Positions 9,765 to 21,554 of a stretch of 64,000 nucleotides of DNA are shown piece by piece. Below the pieces are notes generated by a model. That model saw only the letters and a program-made list of their open reading frames with translations. It was not told where the DNA came from and did not search any database. The stretch covers positions 1,632,001 through 1,696,000 of the forward strand of contig CBDFLE010000006.1 of the NCBI GenBank assembly GCA_965248925.1. The letters are read 5' to 3'. Source of the DNA: Candidatus Multivoradales bacterium. GTDB lineage: Bacteria; Acidobacteriota; Thermoanaerobaculia; Multivoradales; J023. The position numbers and the translations under genes were made by a program. Every line of letters begins with the position of its first letter. Positions within the stretch are counted from its first letter, which is position 1.

Positions 9765-12643
9765 GTGCAATATCGCCCATCCAAGCCACAAGCTCCCCTG
9801 TCCGAATTCGATCGTTACTGCCTGACCTTGCGTCTGGCGGCGCCGATAGTCCTGCCCTTTGAGCATGGCGGCGTGCTGCGTGGCTTGCTGTCGCGGGCGC
9901 TGAGCCAGCACCAACTGCCGGACGGACTGATCCTCTTTGCCGCCGAGTCGGGGCGGGTTCACTTCCGCGCCGGCGATCGCTATCGCTGGGTGGTCACTCT
10001 GGTGGGCGAGGCCCGTGGCCAGGCGGAGACACTGCTGGCGGGTATCGCCGCGGTGGGTGGCCGGGTCGACAAGGGGCCGGCACCGGTCTTGGGTGGTAAT
10101 TTCGTGCTCGAGGCCACCGACTTGCTGCCCGCCGTCGATCTCGACGCCGAGTTGGCCCAGCTCGGCGAGCGAGACGAGATCGTGCTGCTGCTGCGCTCGC
10201 CCCTCTGCCTGCCGCGGCCAAAGACTCCCCAGGGCGCACGAGGCGGCATCTTCGACCAACACTGCTTCCCGGCCGCGGCTTTCTTGGATCGACTTTGGCG
10301 CCGCCGCTTCTTCCTCCAGCACAGCCGCTATCCGCGGCCCGAAGAGCGGTCGACCCGGGCCGCGGTAGGAGAGGGTGCGACGGCCCGACCCCACCACTTG
10401 CTGGCGGTTGATCTGCCGGTTCGGGGCACCGGTGAGCACAAGCCTTCTTACAACCTTGCAGGGGTGCGCGGCCAAGTGGTCTTCGGCGGGCTGAGCGAGG
10501 AAGAGCGCTCAGGCCTGGTCGCCGGGATGTTCCTGCACCTCGGCAAGAGCGTTAACTTTGGCTTTGGCCGCTACACCCTCGAGGGCACCCTCGACCATGG
10601 CGACAAGCATTTTCTACCCAGCACCTCGCTGCTGGCTCACGCCGCCGACTCGGAGGTGCTCGAGGACGCCGTCGCCCATCTGCGCCAGAACCTGAAAACC
10701 AAGCATCAGCTGCCGGGCGATGAGGATGAGCCGATCCCCGGCCGGCTGATCGTCGATCTCTCGCGGCGGCTGCTCGACGGCAGCTACCAGCCCGGCCTGC
10801 TCAGCGGCTTCGTGCTGCCCAAGAAGGACGGCGGCGTGCGCCCTCTGGCGGTCCCCAGCGTGCGCGACCGGGTGGCGCAGCGGGCGGCGATCGAGGTCCT
10901 GGCACCGATCATCGATGGTTTGCTCGAGGATTCCTCCTTCGGCTACCGCCGGGGGTTTTCGCGGCAGGGCGCGGCGCGGGCCATAGAACGGGCCTATGCC
11001 GAGGGCTACCGCTATGTCCTCGACGCGGACATCCACGCCTTCTTCGATCAGGTCGATTGGTCGCTGCTCTTCGCCAAGCTCGAAGCGCTCTTCCCCCAGG
11101 AGCCGCTGGTGGAGCTGCTGCGGCAGTGGATCCAAGCGCCGGTGATCTTCGAGGGTCGGCGCATTCGCCGGCAACGGGGCCTGCCCCAAGGCAGCCCCAT
11201 CTCCCCTCTGCTGGCCAATCTCTATCTTGACCAGCTCGACGAGGCGTTGATCGACCAGGGCTTCAGGCTGGTGCGTTTTGCCGACGATTTCGTCGTCTTG
11301 ACCAAGGATCTCGACCGGGCACGAGCCGCCAAGCTCGCCACCGAGCGGGTGCTGCGAGAGCTGCGCCTGTCGCTCAACCAAGACGAGACCGCCATTCGTG
11401 CCATCGACGACGGCTTCAGCTACCTCGGCTATCTCTTCGTCCGCTCGATGGTGATCGAGAAACGCTCATCGTCGAGTGCCGACGGTTCGGCAGCTGAAGT
11501 GTCCCTCGACGCTGACGACGTGCCGGCTGGATCGTGGCTTGCCGGGGTGTCCCTGCGACGAATCGAGGAGCTGCTCTCCGGGCGTCGCGGGCCCAAGTCG
11601 GTGGCCGGGTTCGAACGAGTTCCTCTGGCCACCGGCGCCGCCCTCGACGCCGGCCGTTGGCCCCTCTATGTGGTGGGGCATGACACCCGCTTGTTCTTGC
11701 GGCGACGAACCGTGGTGCTGAAGCGCCCGGAACAGGAGCCCGCCGAGCTACCCATCGAGGCGCTTTCCCACGTCGTCTTTTGGGGCCGGGTGCGGGCGAC
11801 GGTACCCGTCTTGCGCGGCCTCGCACGGGCCGGTGTGCCGGCCTACTTCTGCCAGGTCGACGGCACCCTCGAAGCGGTCTTTGGTCCCTATGAAGAAAAG
11901 TGGCCGAATTGGCTGGCGCAGGCCCGCGCCGCCGACAACCCGGAGCTCTGCCTGCGTTTTGCCATGGCCACCATCGAAGCGCGGTTGCGCAACTTGCGGT
12001 CATGGCGGTGCGCTTTGGCTGGGGCGGCGGTTCGGCGCTCGCCGCTCAGCTGCGCCAGCTGGCGCGGGAAACTGTCAACAAGCAAAGCCTCGACTCGGTC
12101 CGTGGCCTTGAGGGTCGCGGCATGGCTTTGGTATTTGGAGCATTGGCGGATGCGCTCGACTCCGAGTGGGGTTTCACCGGTCGTCACCGCCGACCGCCGC
12201 CGGATCCGGTCAACGCGATGCTCTCCTTCGGCTACAGCTTGCTTTACAACCACACTGCCACGGCCTTGACCGAGGCTGGCCTCAGTCCGCGGATCGGCTT
12301 GATGCACGAACCCCGCGGCGCCCATCTCGCCTTGGCATCCGATCTGATGGAAGAAGTCCGCCACCTGGTCGAGTCGTTGGTCTGGACATTGATCCGCCGC
12401 CGGCAGGTCAAGCCGACAGATTTTCGCCCGTCGGCAGATGGCTACTACCCGGCGCTGCTGACCCAGGAGGCGCGGCGGATGTTTCTCGACGCCTTCGAGC
12501 GCCGGATGCTGACCCAGCTGACCCCGGAAAAGGGCGAAGAACCGATCAGCTACCGCCAGCTGCTGGTGCGCCAAGCCAGGCAGGTCAGGGAGCTGGTGAG
12601 CGGGCGTCAAGACAGCTATCATCCTCTGGTGATCCGTGGCTAG
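9765..12643 (+). CDS. cas1: Cas6-reverse transcriptase-Cas1 fusion, interrupted by a 1-bp frameshift near 11991-11996
   Basis: Cas6 G-loop HLGKSVNFGFGRY; RT motifs PKKDGGVRPLAVPSVRDRVAQ, DADIHAFFD, GLPQGSPISPLLANLYL, RFADDF; Cas1 motifs split across frames: PIEALSHVVFWG, then RGLEG, FTGRHRRPPPDPVNAMLSFGYSLL, GLMH, LASDLMEE. Confidence 0.92.
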
Positions 12644-12974
12644 GAGGCAGAATCTTGGCTGCCGCGGGCGAGTTGTCAAGGGTAGAGCAAGGCGTCTGGC
12701 TAACGCTACGGTGTTTCCGGGGATCTCGAGGGAGAATCTGCCAAACTGGCACACGTAAGGCTTAAAGCTCTTGAAACAAACAACTTAGATGGGTCGAGGG
12801 GAGAAAGATCAGACCGAGATCCCCTGAGAGACGATAAAATCAATGATATCAATGGGATACAAGACTTCGGAAAACACGAAACCGGCACAATCGAGGGTCC
12901 AGCGCCGCATTTTGACGAGATCCCCTGAGAGCCGCCTGCAAGTCCTTTGCTTTCAAGGGCCTGGAAAGGGTAGA
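12644..12974 (+). promoter_or_regulatory. CRISPR leader region
   Basis: Non-coding, more AT-rich 330 bp between cas1 and the first intact repeat; degenerate repeats lie at the opposite end. Confidence 0.7.
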
Positions 12975-14840
12975 GTGGGAATCGACCTAGCCGCTCAAGG
13001 CATTGCGACCATAAATATTCGGACAGGATACACCAAGACATTTTGTGAGTGTGGGAATCGACCTAGCCGCTCAAGGCATTGCGACTTTCTGCCCCCTCGT
13101 GTCGTTATAGTCGGCGATGCCCACAGTGGGAATCGACCTAGCCGCTCAAGGCATTGCGACTTTCAACGCACGAACCATCTGATCAATGACCCAATCGTGG
13201 GAATCGACCTAGCCGCTCAAGGCATTGCGACTTCGCAAACGTTGTAGAAAAAAGTATGAGCAAGCTCGTGTGGGAATCGACCTAGCCGCTCAAGGCATTG
13301 CGACCTTTCATCCGAAAAGTTCTCAGTGTTCAGTAGGACGTCGCGTGGGAATCGACCTAGCCGCTCAAGGCATTGCGACTTCATTAAAATTTGGGTCAGT
13401 CGCTGTTCTGTACCAGTGGGAATCGACCTAGCCGCTCAAGGCACTGCGACTTTCACCAAGCGTGACGAGCCCGACAACCATGAGAACAAGTGGGAATCGA
13501 CCTAGCCGCTCAAGGCATTGCGACTTTCTAGAATTGGTTGAGAAAACTCTAGTGCAACTCTAAGGTGGGAATCGACCTAGCCGCTCAAGGCATTGCGACA
13601 CACGATACCGTACATTACCAGAAACCACGACAGTTTGTCGGTGGGAATCGACCTAGCCGCTCAAGGCATTGCGACCTTTCTGAGACCTTGCGAAGATTAG
13701 AGAAGAGCAAAGTAGTGGGAATCGACCTAGCCGCTCAAGGCATTGCGACTTTCTGCAATAAATTGACTAATCTCCAGAGCGTCATGCAAGTGGGAATCGA
13801 CCTAGCCGCTCAAGGCATTGCGACTTCGCATCTTCCGAAACTCGCCTGGAAAGTCATGCTGCTTGTGGGAATCGACCTAGCCGCTCAAGGCATTGCGACT
13901 TCAAATATGCTGGATGGACATGTTGCCTCACAAAGAAGCTGTGGGAATCGACCTAGCCGCTCAAGGCATTGCGACTTTGAGAAACGTGGTTTTCCCATTT
14001 TTATGGAGTACGAGTGGGAATCGACCTAGCCGCTCAAGGCATTGCGACTTTGAGAAGTAGTTCAGCAAGGCACAGTAGCCGCTGTGGGAATCGACCTAGC
14101 CGCTCAAGGCATTGCGACCAAACGATAGAAGAAGGTGTGCCCGAGTTCATGAGCAACCGGTGGGAATCGACCTAGCCGCTCAAGGCATTGCGACTTCTCC
14201 ATCCACAAACCTAGCAAAGGGTGTGCGGTCGAAATGTGGGAATCGACCTAGCCGCTCAAGGCATTGCGACTTCGTAGTTGGCGCATACCAGAACCACACT
14301 GCGTTGAAGTGGGAATCGACCTAGCCGCTCAAGGCATTGCGACTTTCCATCAGGGCGTTGTTGTTACTCTGAGTCATAAGTGGGAATCGACCTAGCCGCT
14401 CAAGGCATTGCGACTTTCCGATAGTCATCATCCCGCACCAGTCCAGTTTCATCGTGGGAATCGACCTAGCCGCTCAAGGCATTGCGACTTCTATAGACTT
14501 TGTTCCACCCATGTTCGTTTCTCTCGAGTGGGAATCGACCTAGCCGCTCAAGGCATTGCGACTTTAGCAACGTAGCATCCTTGATCTTGTCGAGCGGCAG
14601 AGTGGGAATCGACCTAGCCGCTCAAGGCATTGCGACCTCAAGGTCTTCGTTGGTGACCCCTGCAATGCTCGACTCTTGTGGGAATCGACCTAGCCGCTCA
14701 AGGCATTGCGACTTCCCCTCCATATCCACGAACGACCTGTTCTTGCCGTAAGTGGGAATCGACCTAGCCGCTCAAGGCATTGCGTCACAGAGTTCGTTGG
14801 CATCGCCGTGTGAGAATCGACCTAGCCGCTCAAGGCATTG
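12975..14840 (+). CRISPR. CRISPR array: 26 repeats (35 bp, GTGGGAATCGACCTAGCCGCTCAAGGCATTGCGAC), 25 spacers; class 1, probably type III-associated
   Basis: Repeats counted at 12975, 13051 ... 14752 and 14810 (last one degenerate and truncated). Spacers 35-41 bp (last 23 bp). Short GCC/GGC stem followed by the 8-nt handle ATTGCGAC. Confidence 0.98.
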
Positions 14841-16163
14841 GATCTTCGTCTCCCTGTGTGGGTAAATAGCGCCGTGGCCGACAAATGGATATGCTTGCTG
14901 GATGCGAGACAAAGACCTGTAGGCGAAGATCTTGGGCGTCGAATCGCCGTGGCGAGTCACAGAAGTAGACCTGGCCTTGGATGAAGGTGAGGTTTTGGTG
15001 CACTTGGTCAACGGCGAGAAGCGCCCACCCTGTCCTGAATGCGGCAAGCCGTGCAGCGACTACGACACCCGTTCTCGTCGCTGGCGGCACCTGGATACCT
15101 GCCAGTACCGGACGGTGCTTTTGGCCCAAGTGCCTCGGATCGAGTGCCCGGATCATGGTGTGCTCCAGGTCCGTGTCCCGTGGAGTGAGCCCGGCTCTCG
15201 CTTTACGGCGCTGTTCGAGGCGCTGGTGATCGATTGGCTCCAGGAAGCAAGCGTCTCGGCCGTCGCTCGGCTGGTGGGCCTGGACTGGGGCGAAGTGGAT
15301 CGAATTATGGCCCGATCCGTGGCCAGGGGTCTGGCTCTGCGAGAGCGCAAGCTCCCTCAGCGTCTCGGTGTGGATGAGACCTCGTTCCAGAAGCGCCACG
15401 AATACGTGACCGTGGTCTGTGACTAGCAGAGAGGTGTCGTTGTGCATGTAGCCGACGGTCGGGGCCGAGACTGCCTCGACGATTTCTACAAGGGATTCGA
15501 AGAGAAAGAAAGGAAAGCTGTCGAGTCTGTGTCTATGGACATGTGGCCAGCGTACATCGGCTCGACCGAGCAGTACATTCCCGGTGCCGAGACGAAGATC
15601 GCCTTCGACAAGTTCCATGTAGCCCAGCACCTGTCCAAAGCCGTGGACAAGATTCGCCGACAGGAGAACAAGATCCTCGTCAGCCAAGGTGATGAGTTCC
15701 TGAAAGGCAGCAAGTACCTCTGGCTCCAGAACCCTGACAACATGAGCGATGAGCGCTGGGCGGGCTTTGAGGAACTGCGGGAAAGTAGCCTCAAGACCGC
15801 CCGCGCATGGGCGATCAAAGAACTCGCCATGAGTCTGTGGTACTACGCATACCGGGGCAGTGCTCGCAAAGCCTGGAACAAGTGGTACTCCTGGGCGATC
15901 CGTTCCCAGCTCGAGCCCATCAAGAAGGTTGCGAGGATGGTCAAACGCCACCTGGAGGGTATCCTCACCGCCATCGTGCGCGGCGTCACCAATGCTCGCT
16001 CCGAAGGCATCAACGCGAAGATCCAATGGGTCAAGTACACAGCCAGGGGATGCCGCAACCGGGAGCGCTTCCGCAACGCGATCTACTTCCATCTTGGTGG
16101 TCTTGATCTTTACCCTGAAAGCATCAGGCGGTGATTGCTACCCACACAAAGTATTGTAGCGCC
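14840..16163 (+). mobile_element. ISL3-family insertion sequence
   Basis: Imperfect 25-bp terminal IRs (GGATCTTCGTCTCCCTGTGTGGGTA / revcomp GGCGCTACAATACTTTGTGTGGGTA); no target duplication seen. Confidence 0.85.
14902..16134 (+). pseudogene. ISL3 transposase with two in-frame TAG stops (14920, 15424)
   Basis: MRDKDL*AKILG; CPECG zinc finger, RRWRHLD, LGVDETSF, VSMDMW, FDKFHV, TNARSEGIN, all in one frame. Confidence 0.88.
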
Positions 16164-16170
16164 GTCTGAT

Positions 16171-16551
16171 TCAATCCGCTGGCAACTGGTCAAGAGGAAC
16201 TCTCTTAGACAAAAGCTCGCCCGCCTCTATGGACCCTTTCTTGGTGAGATTGAGCCAGCAAATATCGCCGAGATCCGGCCCCTTGGGCAAGGCCAGCCAC
16301 TCACTTTCAATCTGCTGAAGGGCTTGGTCAACAGGAATCTTCCAGGCTGTGAATCCTGTCTCTGTAACCATCCCGACATCCATCAAGTCTCGCCCGAGTA
16401 GCTCCCGAAGAACCCGGAGTGAGAGATCACGAACTTCGGCTTCACTCGTTGCACCACCGACCGAGCGTGCTACCCAAGCAACTTCCGTAGCATCGACCCA
16501 ATCGTCCAAACCACGTCGCAGAAGCTCTTCGACAAGATTGTGCAGGCTCAT
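16171..16551 (-). CDS. Putative cognate immunity protein of the RHS toxin
   Basis: 126-aa ORF overlapping the RHS stop (ATGA), same lower-GC composition as the toxin tip. Confidence 0.65.
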   Translation of the reverse strand: MSLHNLVEELLRRGLDDWVDATEVAWVARSVGGATSEAEVRDLSLRVLRELLGRDLMDVGMVTETGFTAWKIPVDQALQQIESEWLALPKGPDLGDICWLNLTKKGSIEAGELLSKRVPLDQLPAD

Positions 16552-19500
16552 TGCTGTACATGCACCTTGCGCCTGGCTCCACTAGGCAGCTTGATGTCGA
16601 TGGTTGGCCCTCCAGACTTCGAGCCAGTGCGCAAGCCTACCGTCGTACCGTCGGGCAGTTTGACTAGCTTACCTGGATACCTTGTGGCGTCGACTGGTGT
16701 GCCGCCGCGGCTTAAGCGACCAAATATGCCCCCTAAATCATCAGCCGACTCGACTACTTTGACGCTAGAACTGCTCCCAGCTCGCAAGCCGGAAAGAGCG
16801 TCGCCAACAGCCTCCGCTCCCCTCCTTGCCTGTGCCGCTTGACGCAGCTTTTTGATTCTCTTCGCTCTCTTGACAGCTTTTGTGAGCTTCACCCCTTTGC
16901 TAACAACCTTGAAAAGCCCCACACCTGTGGCACCTGTCGCCGCCCCAGTGAGAAAAGCTGTGCCTACGCCCGTGGTTAGATCATCGCCCGCTATCGCGTT
17001 AATCGCAACTTGAAAACCGACATCTACGACTCCACCAAGAAACGCGGTTACCAGAAAGGCAAGTCTTCCGTCCGGGTCTACCTGGTTGATTGGACTGTTG
17101 CTGACGTAAGAGAAACGATTCCAACTCTGGGGTGAGGACCGGCTGCCCAGAGATGGATCGACACTCAAGAACCGCCCCACCACCGGATTGCAATGCCGAG
17201 CATGCATGTAGTCCAGCTCGCTCCTCACCCCGGTCCCGGTCTTGTCCCGCTCATGACCGGTAAACTTCAGCAGAATCTCATCTGCCCCCGCGCTGGTCGC
17301 CTCCTGACCAAAGGGGTAGTAGTTGTGCAACGCCACCTGCTGACCGCCACGAGTGATCTGCCGGGGCGTACCCAAATGATCAAGATGCAGATGCGAGGTC
17401 ATCTCGCCGCCGCTACCATCGGGCTCGATGGTGGCCAGCGGCTGGCCACCTCGATGGACGTAATCCCGGCTCCAGCTGAAAGCGCCGCCAGCCGGCTGAT
17501 CGTAGATTCGCAGGACTTCGTTCCCGAGCCCACGCAGGGTCCAGGTGAGACTGGCGGGCTGGGTGGTGCAAGTGCTGGTGGCGCCGGGGCCGAAGCAGTC
17601 GAAGGTGAGGATCCGCTCGTCGCTGGCGTTGTAGATGAAGACCCGCGCTTGATCGGTGTTTGAGCGCAGGTGCTTCATCATGTTGGCGCCATCGAAGGCG
17701 TAGTCGAAGCTCTCGCTGCCGAGGGTGATGTCGGTCAGATTGCCGGCAGCGTCGTACTGAGCGCCTGAGAGGCCGAGGCGGTTGGTGGTGGTGCTGGGGT
17801 TGAGGTTGAGAGCCACGAAACCGGGTGTCGACAACTGCTGGATGTTGCCGAAATTGTCATAAGTCGCCGTCTGGGTGAACCGGGTGGCACCAACGGAGGT
17901 CTGGCCGGAGCGTAATCGGCCGAGGCGGTCATAACGGTAGTCCAGGTTGCCGATGGCGGAGATATTGCCGGCTCCGTCGTAGGCGAAAATGCCGCTGCTC
18001 CAGCCCGCGGAGGTGGTCAGCTGATGCGGCCTGGCGAGGCCGTTGGAGCTGCTGACTTCCTGGGTGTCAACCACGCCATCGCCGTGGGTGAGCTGATGCA
18101 GCATGCCACCGCTCTGGTAGGTGAGGTTGTTGGCGAAGCCGGGCACGGACCTCAGCATACCCTTCTCGTAGTTGAAATTCACCGTGCGCTGCGGATCGTT
18201 GGTGGCGCAGCCGCCGTCGGCGTGTTGGCAGCTGGGGTAGTCGAGTTGCGACAAATTGCCCTGGGTGTCATAGACGAAACCGGTGGTGAAGGCGTAGTTG
18301 CCGGCGAAGAATTGGTAGCGGGTCTGCTTCTCCGACATCAGCCCCTGACGACCGGTGTAGCGGAAGCTCTCGGAGAGCTTGACGTCGAGGAAGCCGGGCT
18401 CGGGGGCCAGGGGATTCTGGATGTCGACCCAGTTGTGGCGCACGGTCTGCACCAGCTTGCCGGCCCGGTGGTCGCTGCCAGAGTTGGCGCGGGCGTAGCG
18501 GAACTGCTTCTGCAGACGCGGGGTGCTCCCCGCGCCATTGCTCGATTCGAGGACTCTGATCAGTCGGCCGGCGGCGTCGAAATCGAAGCTCAGATCGAAG
18601 GCGGTGCTGCCGATCAGATCTTTGGAGGTGGCGTTGCCGCCGGCGTCATAGCGGTAATCGATGCGGCCATTGCCCGAGGGGCCGATCTCGGGATGGGTCT
18701 CGGAGAGTAGGAAGCCGCGACCGTCATAGTCGAACAAGCGGGTCTGGCCGCAGGTCGAGCCGGCGAGGTTCTGGCACACTTTGGTCAGTCTGCCACCATC
18801 GTCATATGAGTAGCGAGTCAGCAGACCGCCACCGCCACAGCTCCCTGACCAGGGGGCGGAACTGCCCTCGCAGACCTCGGCCAGACGGCCCTGGCCGTCC
18901 ATGATCTCGGTGACGTAGGTGTCTTGCTGGCCACTGGTCAGCTGCACTTTGAAGCGCCGGGTCTGCACCCGGTCGCCTTGGTAGGTGAAGAAGGTCGCCG
19001 GCTGTTCTGGCGGCTTGACCCGGCCGGGGCGGCCGAAGCGATCGTAGGCGATGTAGGTCGTGCGCCGGCTCTCGCCGGCCGCGGAGGCGGTGGTCCACAC
19101 CGACTCGTCCGTCTTCCAGTGACGGGGGTTCCAGGTTGTGTAGCGATGCCAGAGCTCGGTCTGGCCAGCGTTGGCGACGGGGATGCGCACGGTCTGTTGC
19201 AGCCGCCGGCCGAGGCCGTCGTAGCGGTGCTCGCGGAAGCTCATCAGATCGGTGCCGCTGCAGGAGGTCTGGAAGGGCTGGCACTGTTGCTCGGTGAGCT
19301 TGGGCGCAAGACTGGGGTTGGCGGTGGTGGGCAGGGTGTAGGTCCACTGGGTCCAGCCCAGCTCGGCCGGGCGCTGGCCGGTCAAGCGGCCCAAGCGATC
19401 GTAAGTGAAGCTGGTGCCCAGGCCCGCCGCGTCGCGGCTGGTGGCCACCAGGCCGGTGTCTGAGTCGATGTCGTAGTCGGCCAGGGTGAGTATCGCGGTG

Positions 19501-21554
19501 CCGGTGCAGTCCACCGCCGTCGACTTGCGCAGGCTGCCGCTGGCGTAGACGTGGTCGGTGCGGTAGGTCGGGCCGGACAAGCCGAGGCTGCACAAGGAGC
19601 CGGTGCCGAGGTTCTGGGTGTCGCCGCCATAAATCCGCTGGCGGGTGACGAAGCCGTTGGTCGAAGTGAGGAGGCTCACCACATCGCGGCTCTGACGGCT
19701 GCTGCCAGCCAGCTGGCGGCGGCGTTCGAGAAAGCCGGTGGTGCTACTGAAGCAGAACTCGGCCTTTTCTGTGGTTCCGCCTTCGCTCACCGACTGCTCG
19801 TCCCAGGTCTCCAGGATCCAGCGTGCGTTGTGGCTTGGCAGCACGAAATCGGTTGCCGGATCGATCGAGCTGTCGTCGGGGTTGGCGATGATGTAGGTGC
19901 CGCTGTTGGCGTTGTAGGTGGTGCTGCTGGTGCGCACGTCGGCGGCGCCGAAGCTGCCGCCGGTGGTCATGGTGCGGAAGTGGCCCAGGCCATCGAAGTC
20001 CGAGAAGGTGACTTCGCGGAACTTGCCGCCGTCGTCGTGGAAGGTCTCCTTGCGGTAGCGCAAGCGGTGGGCCTTCTCGTTGTAGTTGCCGGCGTCGCGG
20101 CCATCGCTGTCGAACTCAACGAAGATCGAGCGGAGCTTGGTTCCGCCAGCGTTGAAGAGTTCTTGGGAAAGGAAGGGGCCGGCTTCTGAGAAGCTGCCAC
20201 TGATGGGATCGCAGTAGGTGTAGGGCAGGCCGTAGGACCAGCGATTGTTGGCGCCGACGGTGGAGAAATAGCTCACCGTTTCGAAGCCCAGCGGATCAGT
20301 CACTTTCATCGAGTGGAAGCAGGGGTGGCCCAGCGGATCGCCGGGGGCTTGCGGGTTTGCGGTGTCGTAGCTGTAGTTCCAGGTGGCGTAGGGGGTGGTG
20401 TCGCCGTCGTCGAGGAAGAGATGTTTGCTCTTGACTCCCCGCGCCACCGTGCCCCAGTCAGGAGCATGGAAGAGGTCGGCCAGCTGGGTTTGGAAGGGGA
20501 AGAGCTGGTAGTCGTAGCCGTAGGCGCCACCGGTGGGCAGGCGCAGTTTCGACAGGCCACCGGAGAGCAGGTTGTCGACGGTCAGGTAGTCCATCTCGTA
20601 GAACGAACCGTCGGGCAACACCACCCGGTCGAGCACCTGGGTGGTGAGGGTGTGCTCGGCTATCGGCACGCAGCCGGGACGGAAGCCGAACTGCCGTTCG
20701 AGGGTCTCGGTGCGGTACTGAAAGAGGAAGGTCGAGTTGCTTTGGCTGCCGAAGGCTTCGAGCCTCACCGTAGCGACTCTGCCACCGACAAAATCCACCG
20801 TGTGAGTGCGCCCTTGGCTGTCGGTCAATGTCCAGTCGCCATCGTTGGCATAGCGCACATTGATCCAATTGCCGAAGCGATCCTCCATCCGCGTCAGGCG
20901 CCAAATGTCCCTTACGGTAGCGTAGTTATGAAATTCATGCAGCTCGCCGCCAGGAAATTCTATGGTGAAGCAGCTCTGATCGACAAACGTACCAGCGGGC
21001 AGCTCGCACACTCCCGGATTGCGTCGGCGGAGGCGCAAATAGGTACTGTCGTTGGTGAACCAGGTGCTGGGCTGCGGGGTCGCTGGAAAGCCACCGGGGT
21101 GTAGCTCGGTGTAAAACCTGTGCTCGCCGCCGCTTGGATCGACGTAAATCTCAGGCGTTGTCGTCGGACTGTTACGCGGCGCGATCAGCTCTCCGAGGCT
21201 GACTCGCCAGCCGAAGCCTGCCCGGGTCTGGAGATCCTGGATCGGCAGACTGTAGGTGCGCAGCATGAACGGTGGGTTGATGTCCTGGCATTGGTGGTTC
21301 TCGTCGTACTCCCAGCCGCCAGAGCTGTACGAGGCGGTCAAGCTGAAGCTCAGGGACGGGCCGACGGGGTAGGTGATTCCGATCGGCAGAGATACGGTAA
21401 GGCTGCCGTTGAAAAGGTTGATTTGATCCAGGTCGCTGATCTGGTAGGCGGTGTCGGCGGTCACTCCGCGCTGGTGGCTCGGGGGGAGTTGCGCGGTCAG
21501 CGGCAGGGCGATGCAGAGGCCGAGAAGGATGAGGGTGAGAGGTCTAATTCGCAT
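16548..21554 (-). CDS. Secreted RHS/YD-repeat polymorphic toxin
   Basis: Signal peptide; many YDxxGRL repeats; RHS core HLDHLGTPR, YYPFG, FTGHERD, GRFLSVDP, PINQVDPDGR; basic C-terminal domain. Confidence 0.92.
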   Translation of the reverse strand: MRIRPLTLILLGLCIALPLTAQLPPSHQRGVTADTAYQISDLDQINLFNGSLTVSLPIGITYPVGPSLSFSLTASYSSGGWEYDENHQCQDINPPFMLRTYSLPIQDLQTRAGFGWRVSLGELIAPRNSPTTTPEIYVDPSGGEHRFYTELHPGGFPATPQPSTWFTNDSTYLRLRRRNPGVCELPAGTFVDQSCFTIEFPGGELHEFHNYATVRDIWRLTRMEDRFGNWINVRYANDGDWTLTDSQGRTHTVDFVGGRVATVRLEAFGSQSNSTFLFQYRTETLERQFGFRPGCVPIAEHTLTTQVLDRVVLPDGSFYEMDYLTVDNLLSGGLSKLRLPTGGAYGYDYQLFPFQTQLADLFHAPDWGTVARGVKSKHLFLDDGDTTPYATWNYSYDTANPQAPGDPLGHPCFHSMKVTDPLGFETVSYFSTVGANNRWSYGLPYTYCDPISGSFSEAGPFLSQELFNAGGTKLRSIFVEFDSDGRDAGNYNEKAHRLRYRKETFHDDGGKFREVTFSDFDGLGHFRTMTTGGSFGAADVRTSSTTYNANSGTYIIANPDDSSIDPATDFVLPSHNARWILETWDEQSVSEGGTTEKAEFCFSSTTGFLERRRQLAGSSRQSRDVVSLLTSTNGFVTRQRIYGGDTQNLGTGSLCSLGLSGPTYRTDHVYASGSLRKSTAVDCTGTAILTLADYDIDSDTGLVATSRDAAGLGTSFTYDRLGRLTGQRPAELGWTQWTYTLPTTANPSLAPKLTEQQCQPFQTSCSGTDLMSFREHRYDGLGRRLQQTVRIPVANAGQTELWHRYTTWNPRHWKTDESVWTTASAAGESRRTTYIAYDRFGRPGRVKPPEQPATFFTYQGDRVQTRRFKVQLTSGQQDTYVTEIMDGQGRLAEVCEGSSAPWSGSCGGGGLLTRYSYDDGGRLTKVCQNLAGSTCGQTRLFDYDGRGFLLSETHPEIGPSGNGRIDYRYDAGGNATSKDLIGSTAFDLSFDFDAAGRLIRVLESSNGAGSTPRLQKQFRYARANSGSDHRAGKLVQTVRHNWVDIQNPLAPEPGFLDVKLSESFRYTGRQGLMSEKQTRYQFFAGNYAFTTGFVYDTQGNLSQLDYPSCQHADGGCATNDPQRTVNFNYEKGMLRSVPGFANNLTYQSGGMLHQLTHGDGVVDTQEVSSSNGLARPHQLTTSAGWSSGIFAYDGAGNISAIGNLDYRYDRLGRLRSGQTSVGATRFTQTATYDNFGNIQQLSTPGFVALNLNPSTTTNRLGLSGAQYDAAGNLTDITLGSESFDYAFDGANMMKHLRSNTDQARVFIYNASDERILTFDCFGPGATSTCTTQPASLTWTLRGLGNEVLRIYDQPAGGAFSWSRDYVHRGGQPLATIEPDGSGGEMTSHLHLDHLGTPRQITRGGQQVALHNYYPFGQEATSAGADEILLKFTGHERDKTGTGVRSELDYMHARHCNPVVGRFLSVDPSLGSRSSPQSWNRFSYVSNSPINQVDPDGRLAFLVTAFLGGVVDVGFQVAINAIAGDDLTTGVGTAFLTGAATGATGVGLFKVVSKGVKLTKAVKRAKRIKKLRQAAQARRGAEAVGDALSGLRAGSSSSVKVVESADDLGGIFGRLSRGGTPVDATRYPGKLVKLPDGTTVGLRTGSKSGGPTIDIKLPSGARRKVHVQQ

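Follow-up and report, generated by a model that had tools for sequence, protein, structure and literature searches.

A one-sided T(1-3)C start of CRISPR spacers beside Cas6-RT-Cas1 genes as a candidate mark of spacer acquisition

A 64,000-nt stretch of the genome of Candidatus Multivoradales bacterium (Acidobacteriota; assembly GCA_965248925.1, contig CBDFLE010000006.1, forward-strand positions 1,632,001 to 1,696,000; here called the window, with positions counted from its first letter) carries a CRISPR array next to a gene for a fusion of Cas6, reverse transcriptase (RT), and Cas1, and most spacers of this array begin with a short T run followed by C. We read this T(1-3)C start, which in relatives is T(1-3)CT, as an acquisition mark of the Cas6-RT-Cas1/Cas2 integrase of one clade, and give this reading a probability only a little better than even (about 0.55). 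The start is polar, is restricted to that one clade, does not depend on the neighboring spacer, and has templated T residues in two mapped spacers. In the proposed mechanism, the integrase or a partner nuclease would select a prespacer strand whose 3' end is G plus one to three A (often AGA(n)), and the 3'-OH of that strand would be joined, on the bottom strand, to the repeat end that faces the spacer, as the established geometry of Cas1 integration leads one to expect. After fill-in, the guide would open at its 5' end with T(1-3)C, immediately next to the repeat. The A residues would mostly be copied from the source, with one untemplated A sometimes added, as by the terminal transferase of the Marinomonas RT, and the captured strand may be RNA or DNA.

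The window array is made up as follows:

12975..14844, plus strand: CRISPR array, 26 repeats (35 nt; repeat 3' end ATTGCGAC)
13010..14809, plus strand: 25 spacers of 35-41 nt (the last one 23 nt), from the array parse
14752-14786 and 14810-14844, plus strand: the two last repeats, both degenerate, from the array parse

Its regular direct repeats and unique spacers are those of a type III or Cas6-kind CRISPR array, with 24 perfect repeats kept and the 23-nt final spacer sitting between the two degenerate ones. The repeat terminates in ATTGCGAC, an end of the ATTGxxAC kind that presumably forms the 8-nt 5' tag of the CRISPR RNA (crRNA); because of this end, the position of the degenerate repeats on the 3' side, and the RT-Cas1 gene upstream on the plus strand, the plus strand is taken as the crRNA sense. 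No second array with this repeat is present in the 8.0-Mb genome, and none was found among 299 other genomes of the same order. An earlier note on the window, made from the sequence alone, had described a TT start of the spacers and read it as a footprint of the acquisition mechanism, and its counts were all reproduced: 18/25 spacers begin with TT (10 TTT and 8 TTC), two more begin with CTTTC, 17 have TTC within the first 5 nt, and the five with CA, AC, or CTC starts are spacers 1, 9, 16, 23, and 25. Sorted by motif, 15 spacers start with T(2-3)C, three with TTTG or TTTA, two with CTTTC, and five otherwise. The TT start is real: within the window spacers themselves the internal frequency of TT is 6.6% (P[>=18 of 25] = 1.8e-16), and that of T(2-3)C, which opens 15/25, is 1.8% (P = 1.6e-20).

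The mark recurs beside related genes. The clade set comprises 12 array sets beside Cas6-RT-Cas1 genes that are 34-50% identical, drawn from this genome, four metagenome-assembled genomes (MAGs), and six metagenome contigs; locus L058 was dropped, as it repeats L027. Across the set, 139/257 spacers (54%) start with T(1-3)C compared with 7.6% of internal positions (P = 8e-85). The counts are 15/24 for the window array (W), 13/33 for the type III-D arrays of the same genome (RT2), 12/17 for L024, 17/38 for L025, 11/22 for L026, and 38/57 for L027, and among the metagenome loci 2/4 (L053), 5/12 (L054), 3/6 (L059), 5/11 (L060), 13/26 (L061), and 5/7 (L070). The pooled controls reach 42/308, made up of the type I-C arrays of this genome (19/147), its type III-B array X4 (2/19), and distant RT-Cas1 loci (21/142), with three small arrays excluded (L069, 2/5; L074, 0/4; L077, 0/6). 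The mark is absent from several metagenome loci with more distant RT-Cas1 (8/35, 4/19, 0/9, 3/24, 0/6, 1/24, 0/7, 0/4, and 2/5), and the distant locus L028 gives 5/24.

A scan of one genome per species returned four full-length relatives at 42-50% identity and a fifth, more distant one at 34%; the four are MAGs labeled Acidobacteria, Pyrinomonadaceae, Eisenbacteria, and Acidobacteriota. Their arrays flank the gene on both sides and on the same strand, with repeats of the ...GAAAGGCC...ATTG(A/C)(G/A)AC kind, and their spacers start with TCT, TTCT, TTTCT, or CTTTCT. The T run varies in length from one to three; it is followed by C in 106/132 spacers, and in the relatives T usually comes next (66/78 in L024-L027). 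In G031, a genome of a sister genus in the same family as the window genome, an array with a related repeat lies beside type III-D effectors (Csx10 and Csx7), and 4/6 of its spacers start with TTCT or TTTCT. In the class to which G303 belongs, 160 further genomes were scanned for the clade, with two distant RT-Cas1 genes as the only finds. Some spacer starts are alike beyond the motif: window spacer 17 (14195-14235) and spacer 6 of L027 array 1, from different phyla, have a common start of ∼17 nt (TTCTCCATCCA...CAAACC), and one pair of L024 and L025 spacers has a common start of 12 nt (TTCTTCCTCCTC). Several spacer starts also resemble the complement of a ribosome-binding site.

Whether the marked bases are copied or added can be read where a spacer has a target. 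About 225 clade spacers were searched against their own genomes, and five mapped, two of them with a T start. The first (RT2, TTCGG start) matches at 35/37 positions with TTC in the genome, and is sense to a gene for a 489-aa secreted protein; the second (RT2, unmarked) matches at 31/36 and is also sense. The third, the first spacer of L025 array 3 (L025:7076-7119, GTTG...), matches an intergenic hairpin at 44/44 and is templated at both ends. The fourth (L027, TTTGG start) matches at 38/39, the target having G for the outer T and the next two T residues being templated; it is antisense to a lipoprotein-like open reading frame (ORF), and its mRNA-sense strand ends in ...GCCGCCAA plus one extra A. 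The fifth, the first spacer of the G355 array (L133:642-681), matches at 39/40 inside an ORF, is antisense, and has on its top strand a templated ...CAGA end plus one untemplated A. Noncoded nucleotides thus amount to at most one per mapped spacer, and a single untemplated A at a 3' end occurs in 2/5. The templated motif is not in the flank outside the spacer, where a type I protospacer-adjacent motif (PAM) is found, and instead lies inside the spacer, within the match where mapped. The leader-proximal self-matching spacers of L025 and G355 resemble recent self-derived acquisitions.

Other searches for targets were negative. Public phage and plasmid records gave no match for the W array, the largest RT2 array, or L027 array 1; comparison of the W array with 24 genomes of its family gave no targets and only the related array, and the L027 array compared with 61 genomes of its family gave only related arrays, with four candidates scored per genome and low sensitivity. 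Among sequencing runs, four from one sample share 17-18% of the sequence words, with no RNA run among those listed; their contigs cover just the leader as far as the first repeat, along with individual repeat-spacer units of the host, and none bears a target. Overlaps between spacers, as an indicator of untemplated ends, included none that was informative.

These matches bear on the first of three origins offered in the earlier note, namely, that the T run is the complement of untemplated deoxyadenosine (dA) tails. If tailing alone were at work, RNA fragments ending in G would receive one to three dA residues from the RT terminal transferase, and several observations fit: the T run is variable in length, the outer T of the L027 spacer and the terminal A of the G355 spacer are untemplated, and the rare extra base ahead of the T run is usually C, corresponding to G in the tail. 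The Cas6-RT-Cas1/Cas2 system of Marinomonas mediterranea MMB-1 (type III-B) adds short noncoded 3' tails, mostly of dA, and spacers of three RT-Cas1 systems have at least two noncoded nucleotides at a junction, according to the accessible parts of the report (Mohr et al. 2024, PMC11014452). However, the inner two T residues are in the target in both T-start spacers, which would be a coincidence of ∼1 in 250 at an A frequency of ∼0.25 if every T were a tail, and tailing accounts neither for the C that follows the run nor for the T next to it in the relatives. The III-B module of this genome, which has an RT too, is unmarked, and Marinomonas spacers, as far as the consulted portions of that work describe them, integrate either way, whereas the mark here is one-sided. 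Tailing alone is therefore an unlikely origin, although single untemplated A residues do occur and that much of the proposal survives. Either of the other two origins, in which GAA(A) ends are templated and come from an RNA or a DNA source, may apply.

A different possibility is that the TT belongs to a variable repeat end, in which case the spacer-side cut would slip into the older spacer and the newer one would receive a copy of the older one's first bases. The window offers some encouragement, as spacers 14 and 15 (13976-14083) are identical over their first 8 nt (TTTGAGAA) and different thereafter, and spacers 19 and 20 are identical over their first 5 nt; some array consensuses extend 1-2 T past the tag, and the trailers behind the last repeat start with TTCG or TTTCG in 3/4 arrays of this genome. 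The start of the newer spacer is nevertheless independent of the older one: a T start follows a T-start older neighbor in 110/150 cases and another start in 46/68 (P = 0.42), and the motif is in the newer spacer in 73/122 and 56/96 cases according to the motif state of the older neighbor. Prefixes are no more alike in adjacent pairs than in distant ones, given which the shared prefixes of spacers 14/15 and 19/20 may be chance. The mark also returns right after unmarked spacers (W spacers 8/9, 15/16, 22/23, and 24/25), and spacer length is the same with and without the motif (P = 0.75). An origin in the repeat is thus scarcely credible, and the reading as an acquisition footprint is partly supported, in that the mark is clade-specific, neighbor-independent, and outside the repeat; a mechanism by tails only does not fit the two mapped T-start spacers.

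The genome carries three further CRISPR systems besides the window array, which serve as internal comparisons:

Type I-C: Cas3, Cas8c, Cas7, Cas4, and Cas1c, with three arrays and 147 spacers
Type III-B (Cmr): Cas1 beside a separate RT gene, with one array (X4) and 19 distinct spacers
Type III-D (Csx10, Csx7): two nearly identical Cas6-RT-Cas1-Cas2 modules, with three arrays (RT2) and 33 spacers

In the type III-D system the Csx10 and Csx7 genes adjoin a paralogous RT-Cas1 at C6:289-296k, and the RT2 repeat on the minus strand is ...ATTGAGAC, the orientation in which its spacers were counted. Next to the second Cas6-RT-Cas1 module (G000:C6:296001-304000; L021:138-3613) are a CBASS-like nucleotide cyclase and a SAVED-domain protein, the latter HetF/CHAT-like in its N-terminal part. 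The X4 array shows the bias in neither orientation. Because its RT-linked adaptation module shares the cell, the RNA pool, and the RNases with the marked arrays, the mark does not come from a host-wide property of RNA ends. At this III-B locus (L023, G000:C6:4119001-4137000) a 319-aa RT gene adjoins a 329-aa Cas1, and in the X4 array a five-spacer block is duplicated and two more spacers are present twice each.

The complete I-C system, with Cas4 and Cas1c, raises the possibility that its adaptation module acts in trans and leaves an untrimmed PAM in the spacer, a narrow form of the DNA origin. The PAM of type I-C systems is TTC, and the Cas1 domain of the RT-Cas1 proteins has its best scores with I-C, I-D, and I-G Cas1 models. 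The final C of I-C repeats is also PAM-derived, as stated in the part of PMC8482600 consulted. This explanation is nonetheless very improbable: the I-C spacers are 32-36 nt long and only 19/147 of them carry T(1-3)C, the I-C repeats are unlike those of the marked arrays, and the mark is present in MAGs of other phyla and in metagenome contigs, always beside RT-Cas1 and with a core of TCT, not TTC. One I-C spacer matches the host chromosome at 33/33 (G000:C5:1725512-1725544), and the three bases preceding the match are AGG, not TTC.

The mark has a weaker counterpart at the opposite spacer end. On the top strand, 43/257 spacers (17%) end in G-A(1-3), above a background of 7.0% (P = 1e-7), which points to a property of 3' ends. 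Position 1 of the spacer is T in 68%, C in 18%, A in 8%, and G in 6%, giving an order of A > G > T, C on the opposite strand, and both terminal bases favor purines on the strand that bears the 3'-OH. The mark is polar (54% at the 5' end vs 17% at the 3' end), and this looks like a preference for strands ending in G-A(n)-3'OH with the better end directed to the spacer side. Spacer orientation was assessed with a codon-usage classifier with 72-78% accuracy on test genes, two doubtful test sets aside. By this classifier, the strand opposite the spacer is the coding one for 164/257 clade spacers (42/57 for L027 and 17/24 for W) and for 77/147 I-C spacers, and most clade guides would be antisense to genes. 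The codon phase of the G (35:20:34) shows no clear phase. A tentative extension is that the purine end (A)G-A(1-3)-3'OH, read on one strand and always sent to the spacer side, acts as a PAM-like orientation signal kept inside the spacer, fixing the polarity of type III spacers so that the guide would be antisense to the transcript from which it was taken. Next to the repeat, this sequence may also speed the integration that follows.

The window RT-Cas1 gene and its surroundings comprise the following features:

9765..12002, plus strand: putative Cas6-like N-terminal domain, RT, and N-terminal Cas1 part, the first frame of a broken Cas6-RT-Cas1 gene (Pfam, tblastn)
11966..12643, plus strand: C-terminal Cas1 part in another frame (Pfam Cas_Cas1, E 1.6e-48, profile positions 132-282)
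12644..12974, plus strand: leader, with a 15-nt direct repeat at 12816-12830 and 12917-12931
14932..16134, plus strand: ISL3-family transposase, split into two ORFs, directly 3' of the array (Pfam Zn_ribbon_ISL3, HTH_Tnp_ISL3, DDE_Tnp_ISL3)

In the product of 9765..12002, residues 352-556 match RVT_1 (E 9e-34) and residues 634-746 match Cas_Cas1 (E 5.5e-14); the ORF from 9765 continues, out of register, to 12269. With the intact RT-Cas1 at L020:9519-12392 this product shares 42% identity (tblastn homologous stretch, 9777-12002), a comparison that also shows the FADD motif of the RT active site, and the product of 11966..12643 is 44% identical by BLASTP to residues 741-954 of this intact homologue. 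The RT domain is group II intron-like, and RT and Cas1 are both present yet not in one polypeptide, owing to a frameshift between 11966 and 12002. Intact Cas6-RT-Cas1 paralogues elsewhere in the genome are 957 and 980 aa long and 42-44% identical to the window gene. The frameshift may be a sequencing or assembly error, or the window module may be dead and supplied in trans by the two intact paralogues. The N-terminal ∼300 residues have no Pfam or NCBIfam match, and the phmmer alignment of a paralogue to 7kft ("Cas6-RT-Cas1") starts at residue 213; a stand-alone homologue of the Cas6-like N-terminal domain adjoins the type III-D module in G031.

A cas2 gene was not found between 12643 and the array, where a 74-aa stop-to-stop frame (12704-12928) has no Pfam match; cas2 follows the RT-Cas1 genes of L020, L021, L025, and L027, at the position corresponding to the window leader. 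The leader terminus, ...GGGTAGA, is common to the window array and the related G031 array. Csx10/Csx7-type effector genes of the repeat-associated mysterious protein (RAMP) kind were not found beside the window array, whose neighbors are SPFH, MerR, ISL3, and RHS genes by Pfam. Downstream of the array and the ISL3 remnant is a 1,668-aa RHS-repeat protein on the minus strand (16548-21554).

Several findings weigh against the mark being left by the integrase of this clade. The window RT-Cas1 is frameshifted and without cas2, so the window spacers were made earlier or by proteins acting in trans. The split between templated and untemplated bases is based on very few cases, the five mapped spacers with their two T starts, and the sole fully templated TTC spacer is sense to its gene, with a match of only 35/37. 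The antisense share is equal in motif (89/139) and nonmotif (75/118) spacers, so that the mark does not single out a class of spacers derived from transcripts and the antisense bias is not attributable to the mark. No Cas1 was found in G031, a 94%-complete genome, and yet its array keeps the bias. The earlier note had named the same bias in arrays without an RT as evidence against the RT link, and the G031 array goes only part of the way: the ORF adjoining it matches only the first ∼400-480 residues of RT-Cas1 and, from this partial similarity, looks like a truncated Cas6-RT remnant, and the array is for this reason no refutation.

A further point of the same kind comes from the newest spacers. 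The leader-proximal spacer is marked in only 4/20 arrays compared with 135/238 spacers elsewhere (Fisher P = 0.002; arrays of the window, L020, L021, L024-L027, and L053-L070, three of which begin near a contig end), and a pure acquisition mark does not predict this depletion. First spacers differ little in length (+1.0 nt, P = 0.16), and the reverse motif is no different in them (3/20 vs 40/237). Two of the leader-proximal spacers are perfect or near-perfect self matches, neither with the forward mark. It is possible that self-derived new spacers are acquired along a different route and lost soon afterwards, that marked spacers are selected, or that integration is faster beside a TTCT-start spacer, with arrays found resting on unmarked ones. 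In its full form, selection after acquisition would require little bias in acquisition itself, guides with UUC or UCU starts being kept as the better ones in the type III-D complex, and it draws on the depletion, on the unmarked self matches, and on the antisense bias, which is present in both spacer classes and is consistent with selection. However, the mark rises from 20% at array position 1 to 65% at position 2 and is then flat, which is too abrupt for gradual purging; its register varies; the G-A(n) preference is present also at the other 3' end, which is the guide 3' end; and the first guide bases are not known to play a part in type III targeting. We therefore consider selection as improbable as tailing alone, if not slightly more so, and retain the integrase of the clade as the preferred source of the mark. 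If the orientation-signal extension is true, faster next integration would explain arrays resting on an unmarked first spacer.

The orientation of new spacers in RNA-targeting type III systems is an open question. In the RT-Cas1 systems studied, the available portions of the published descriptions give integration in both orientations or a slight antisense bias only, and a strong, one-sided, sequence-defined mark in the natural arrays of one RT-Cas1 clade suggests that its integrase tells the two ends of a prespacer apart. The first four bases of new spacers offer a simple readout for an intact operon of this genome, such as the Cas6-RT-Cas1 and cas2 genes at G000:C6:285-288k, and RNA-recording tools based on RT-Cas1 would benefit from directional, end-marked capture. 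The consulted parts of the literature, including PMC5513706, do not describe natural arrays whose spacers have a one-sided T(1-3)C(T) start, and Fig. S1 and the tables of PMC11014452 may bear on this.

Among known systems, the Vibrio vulnificus type III-D system, with RT-Cas1, Cas2A, and Cas2B (PMC6821258), has AT-rich spacer ends, a G/C flank, and an antisense bias, and the type VI RT-Cas1 systems (PMC11662929) have AT-rich spacer ends with a G/C flank, in both cases according to the parts of the reports at hand. The clade described here shares the III-D subtype with the Vibrio system; unlike the mark reported here, the bias in the Vibrio and type VI systems is symmetric, spans 2-5 nt, and is AT-rich only, with neither T(1-3)C(T) nor a polarity described in those parts. 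The likeness to Marinomonas lies in the Cas6-RT-Cas1 fusion, in the extra A at the repeat-joined 3' end, here single and in 2/5 mapped spacers, and in the opposite-strand order at position 1, which is the order given for noncoded nucleotides in the available part of PMC11014452. That part of the report also gives at least two noncoded nucleotides in most spacers, in either orientation and with no sequence requirement, a pattern not found in the mapped spacers of this clade; here the mark is one-sided, the base ahead of the A run is a fixed G, and the two readable cases are largely templated. The best solved relative of the intact homologue is the Thiomicrospira Cas6-RT-Cas1 (PDB 7kft/7kfu; E 1e-93, residues 213-912), a likeness drawn from sequence comparison. 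In type I systems it is the spacer side of the repeat that receives the PAM-side 3' end, and type I-E keeps the PAM-derived G of AAG at the repeat end. The clade resembles types I-E and I-C in that the motif-side 3' end is at the spacer side of the repeat and the motif is partly retained, with a Cas1 closest to those of I-C, I-D, and I-G. In types I-E and I-C, however, a single fixed base stays there and the remainder is trimmed off, in I-C by Cas4, whereas here the loci examined have no cas4, the type III effector needs no PAM, and 2-5 bases in variable register are kept inside the spacer.

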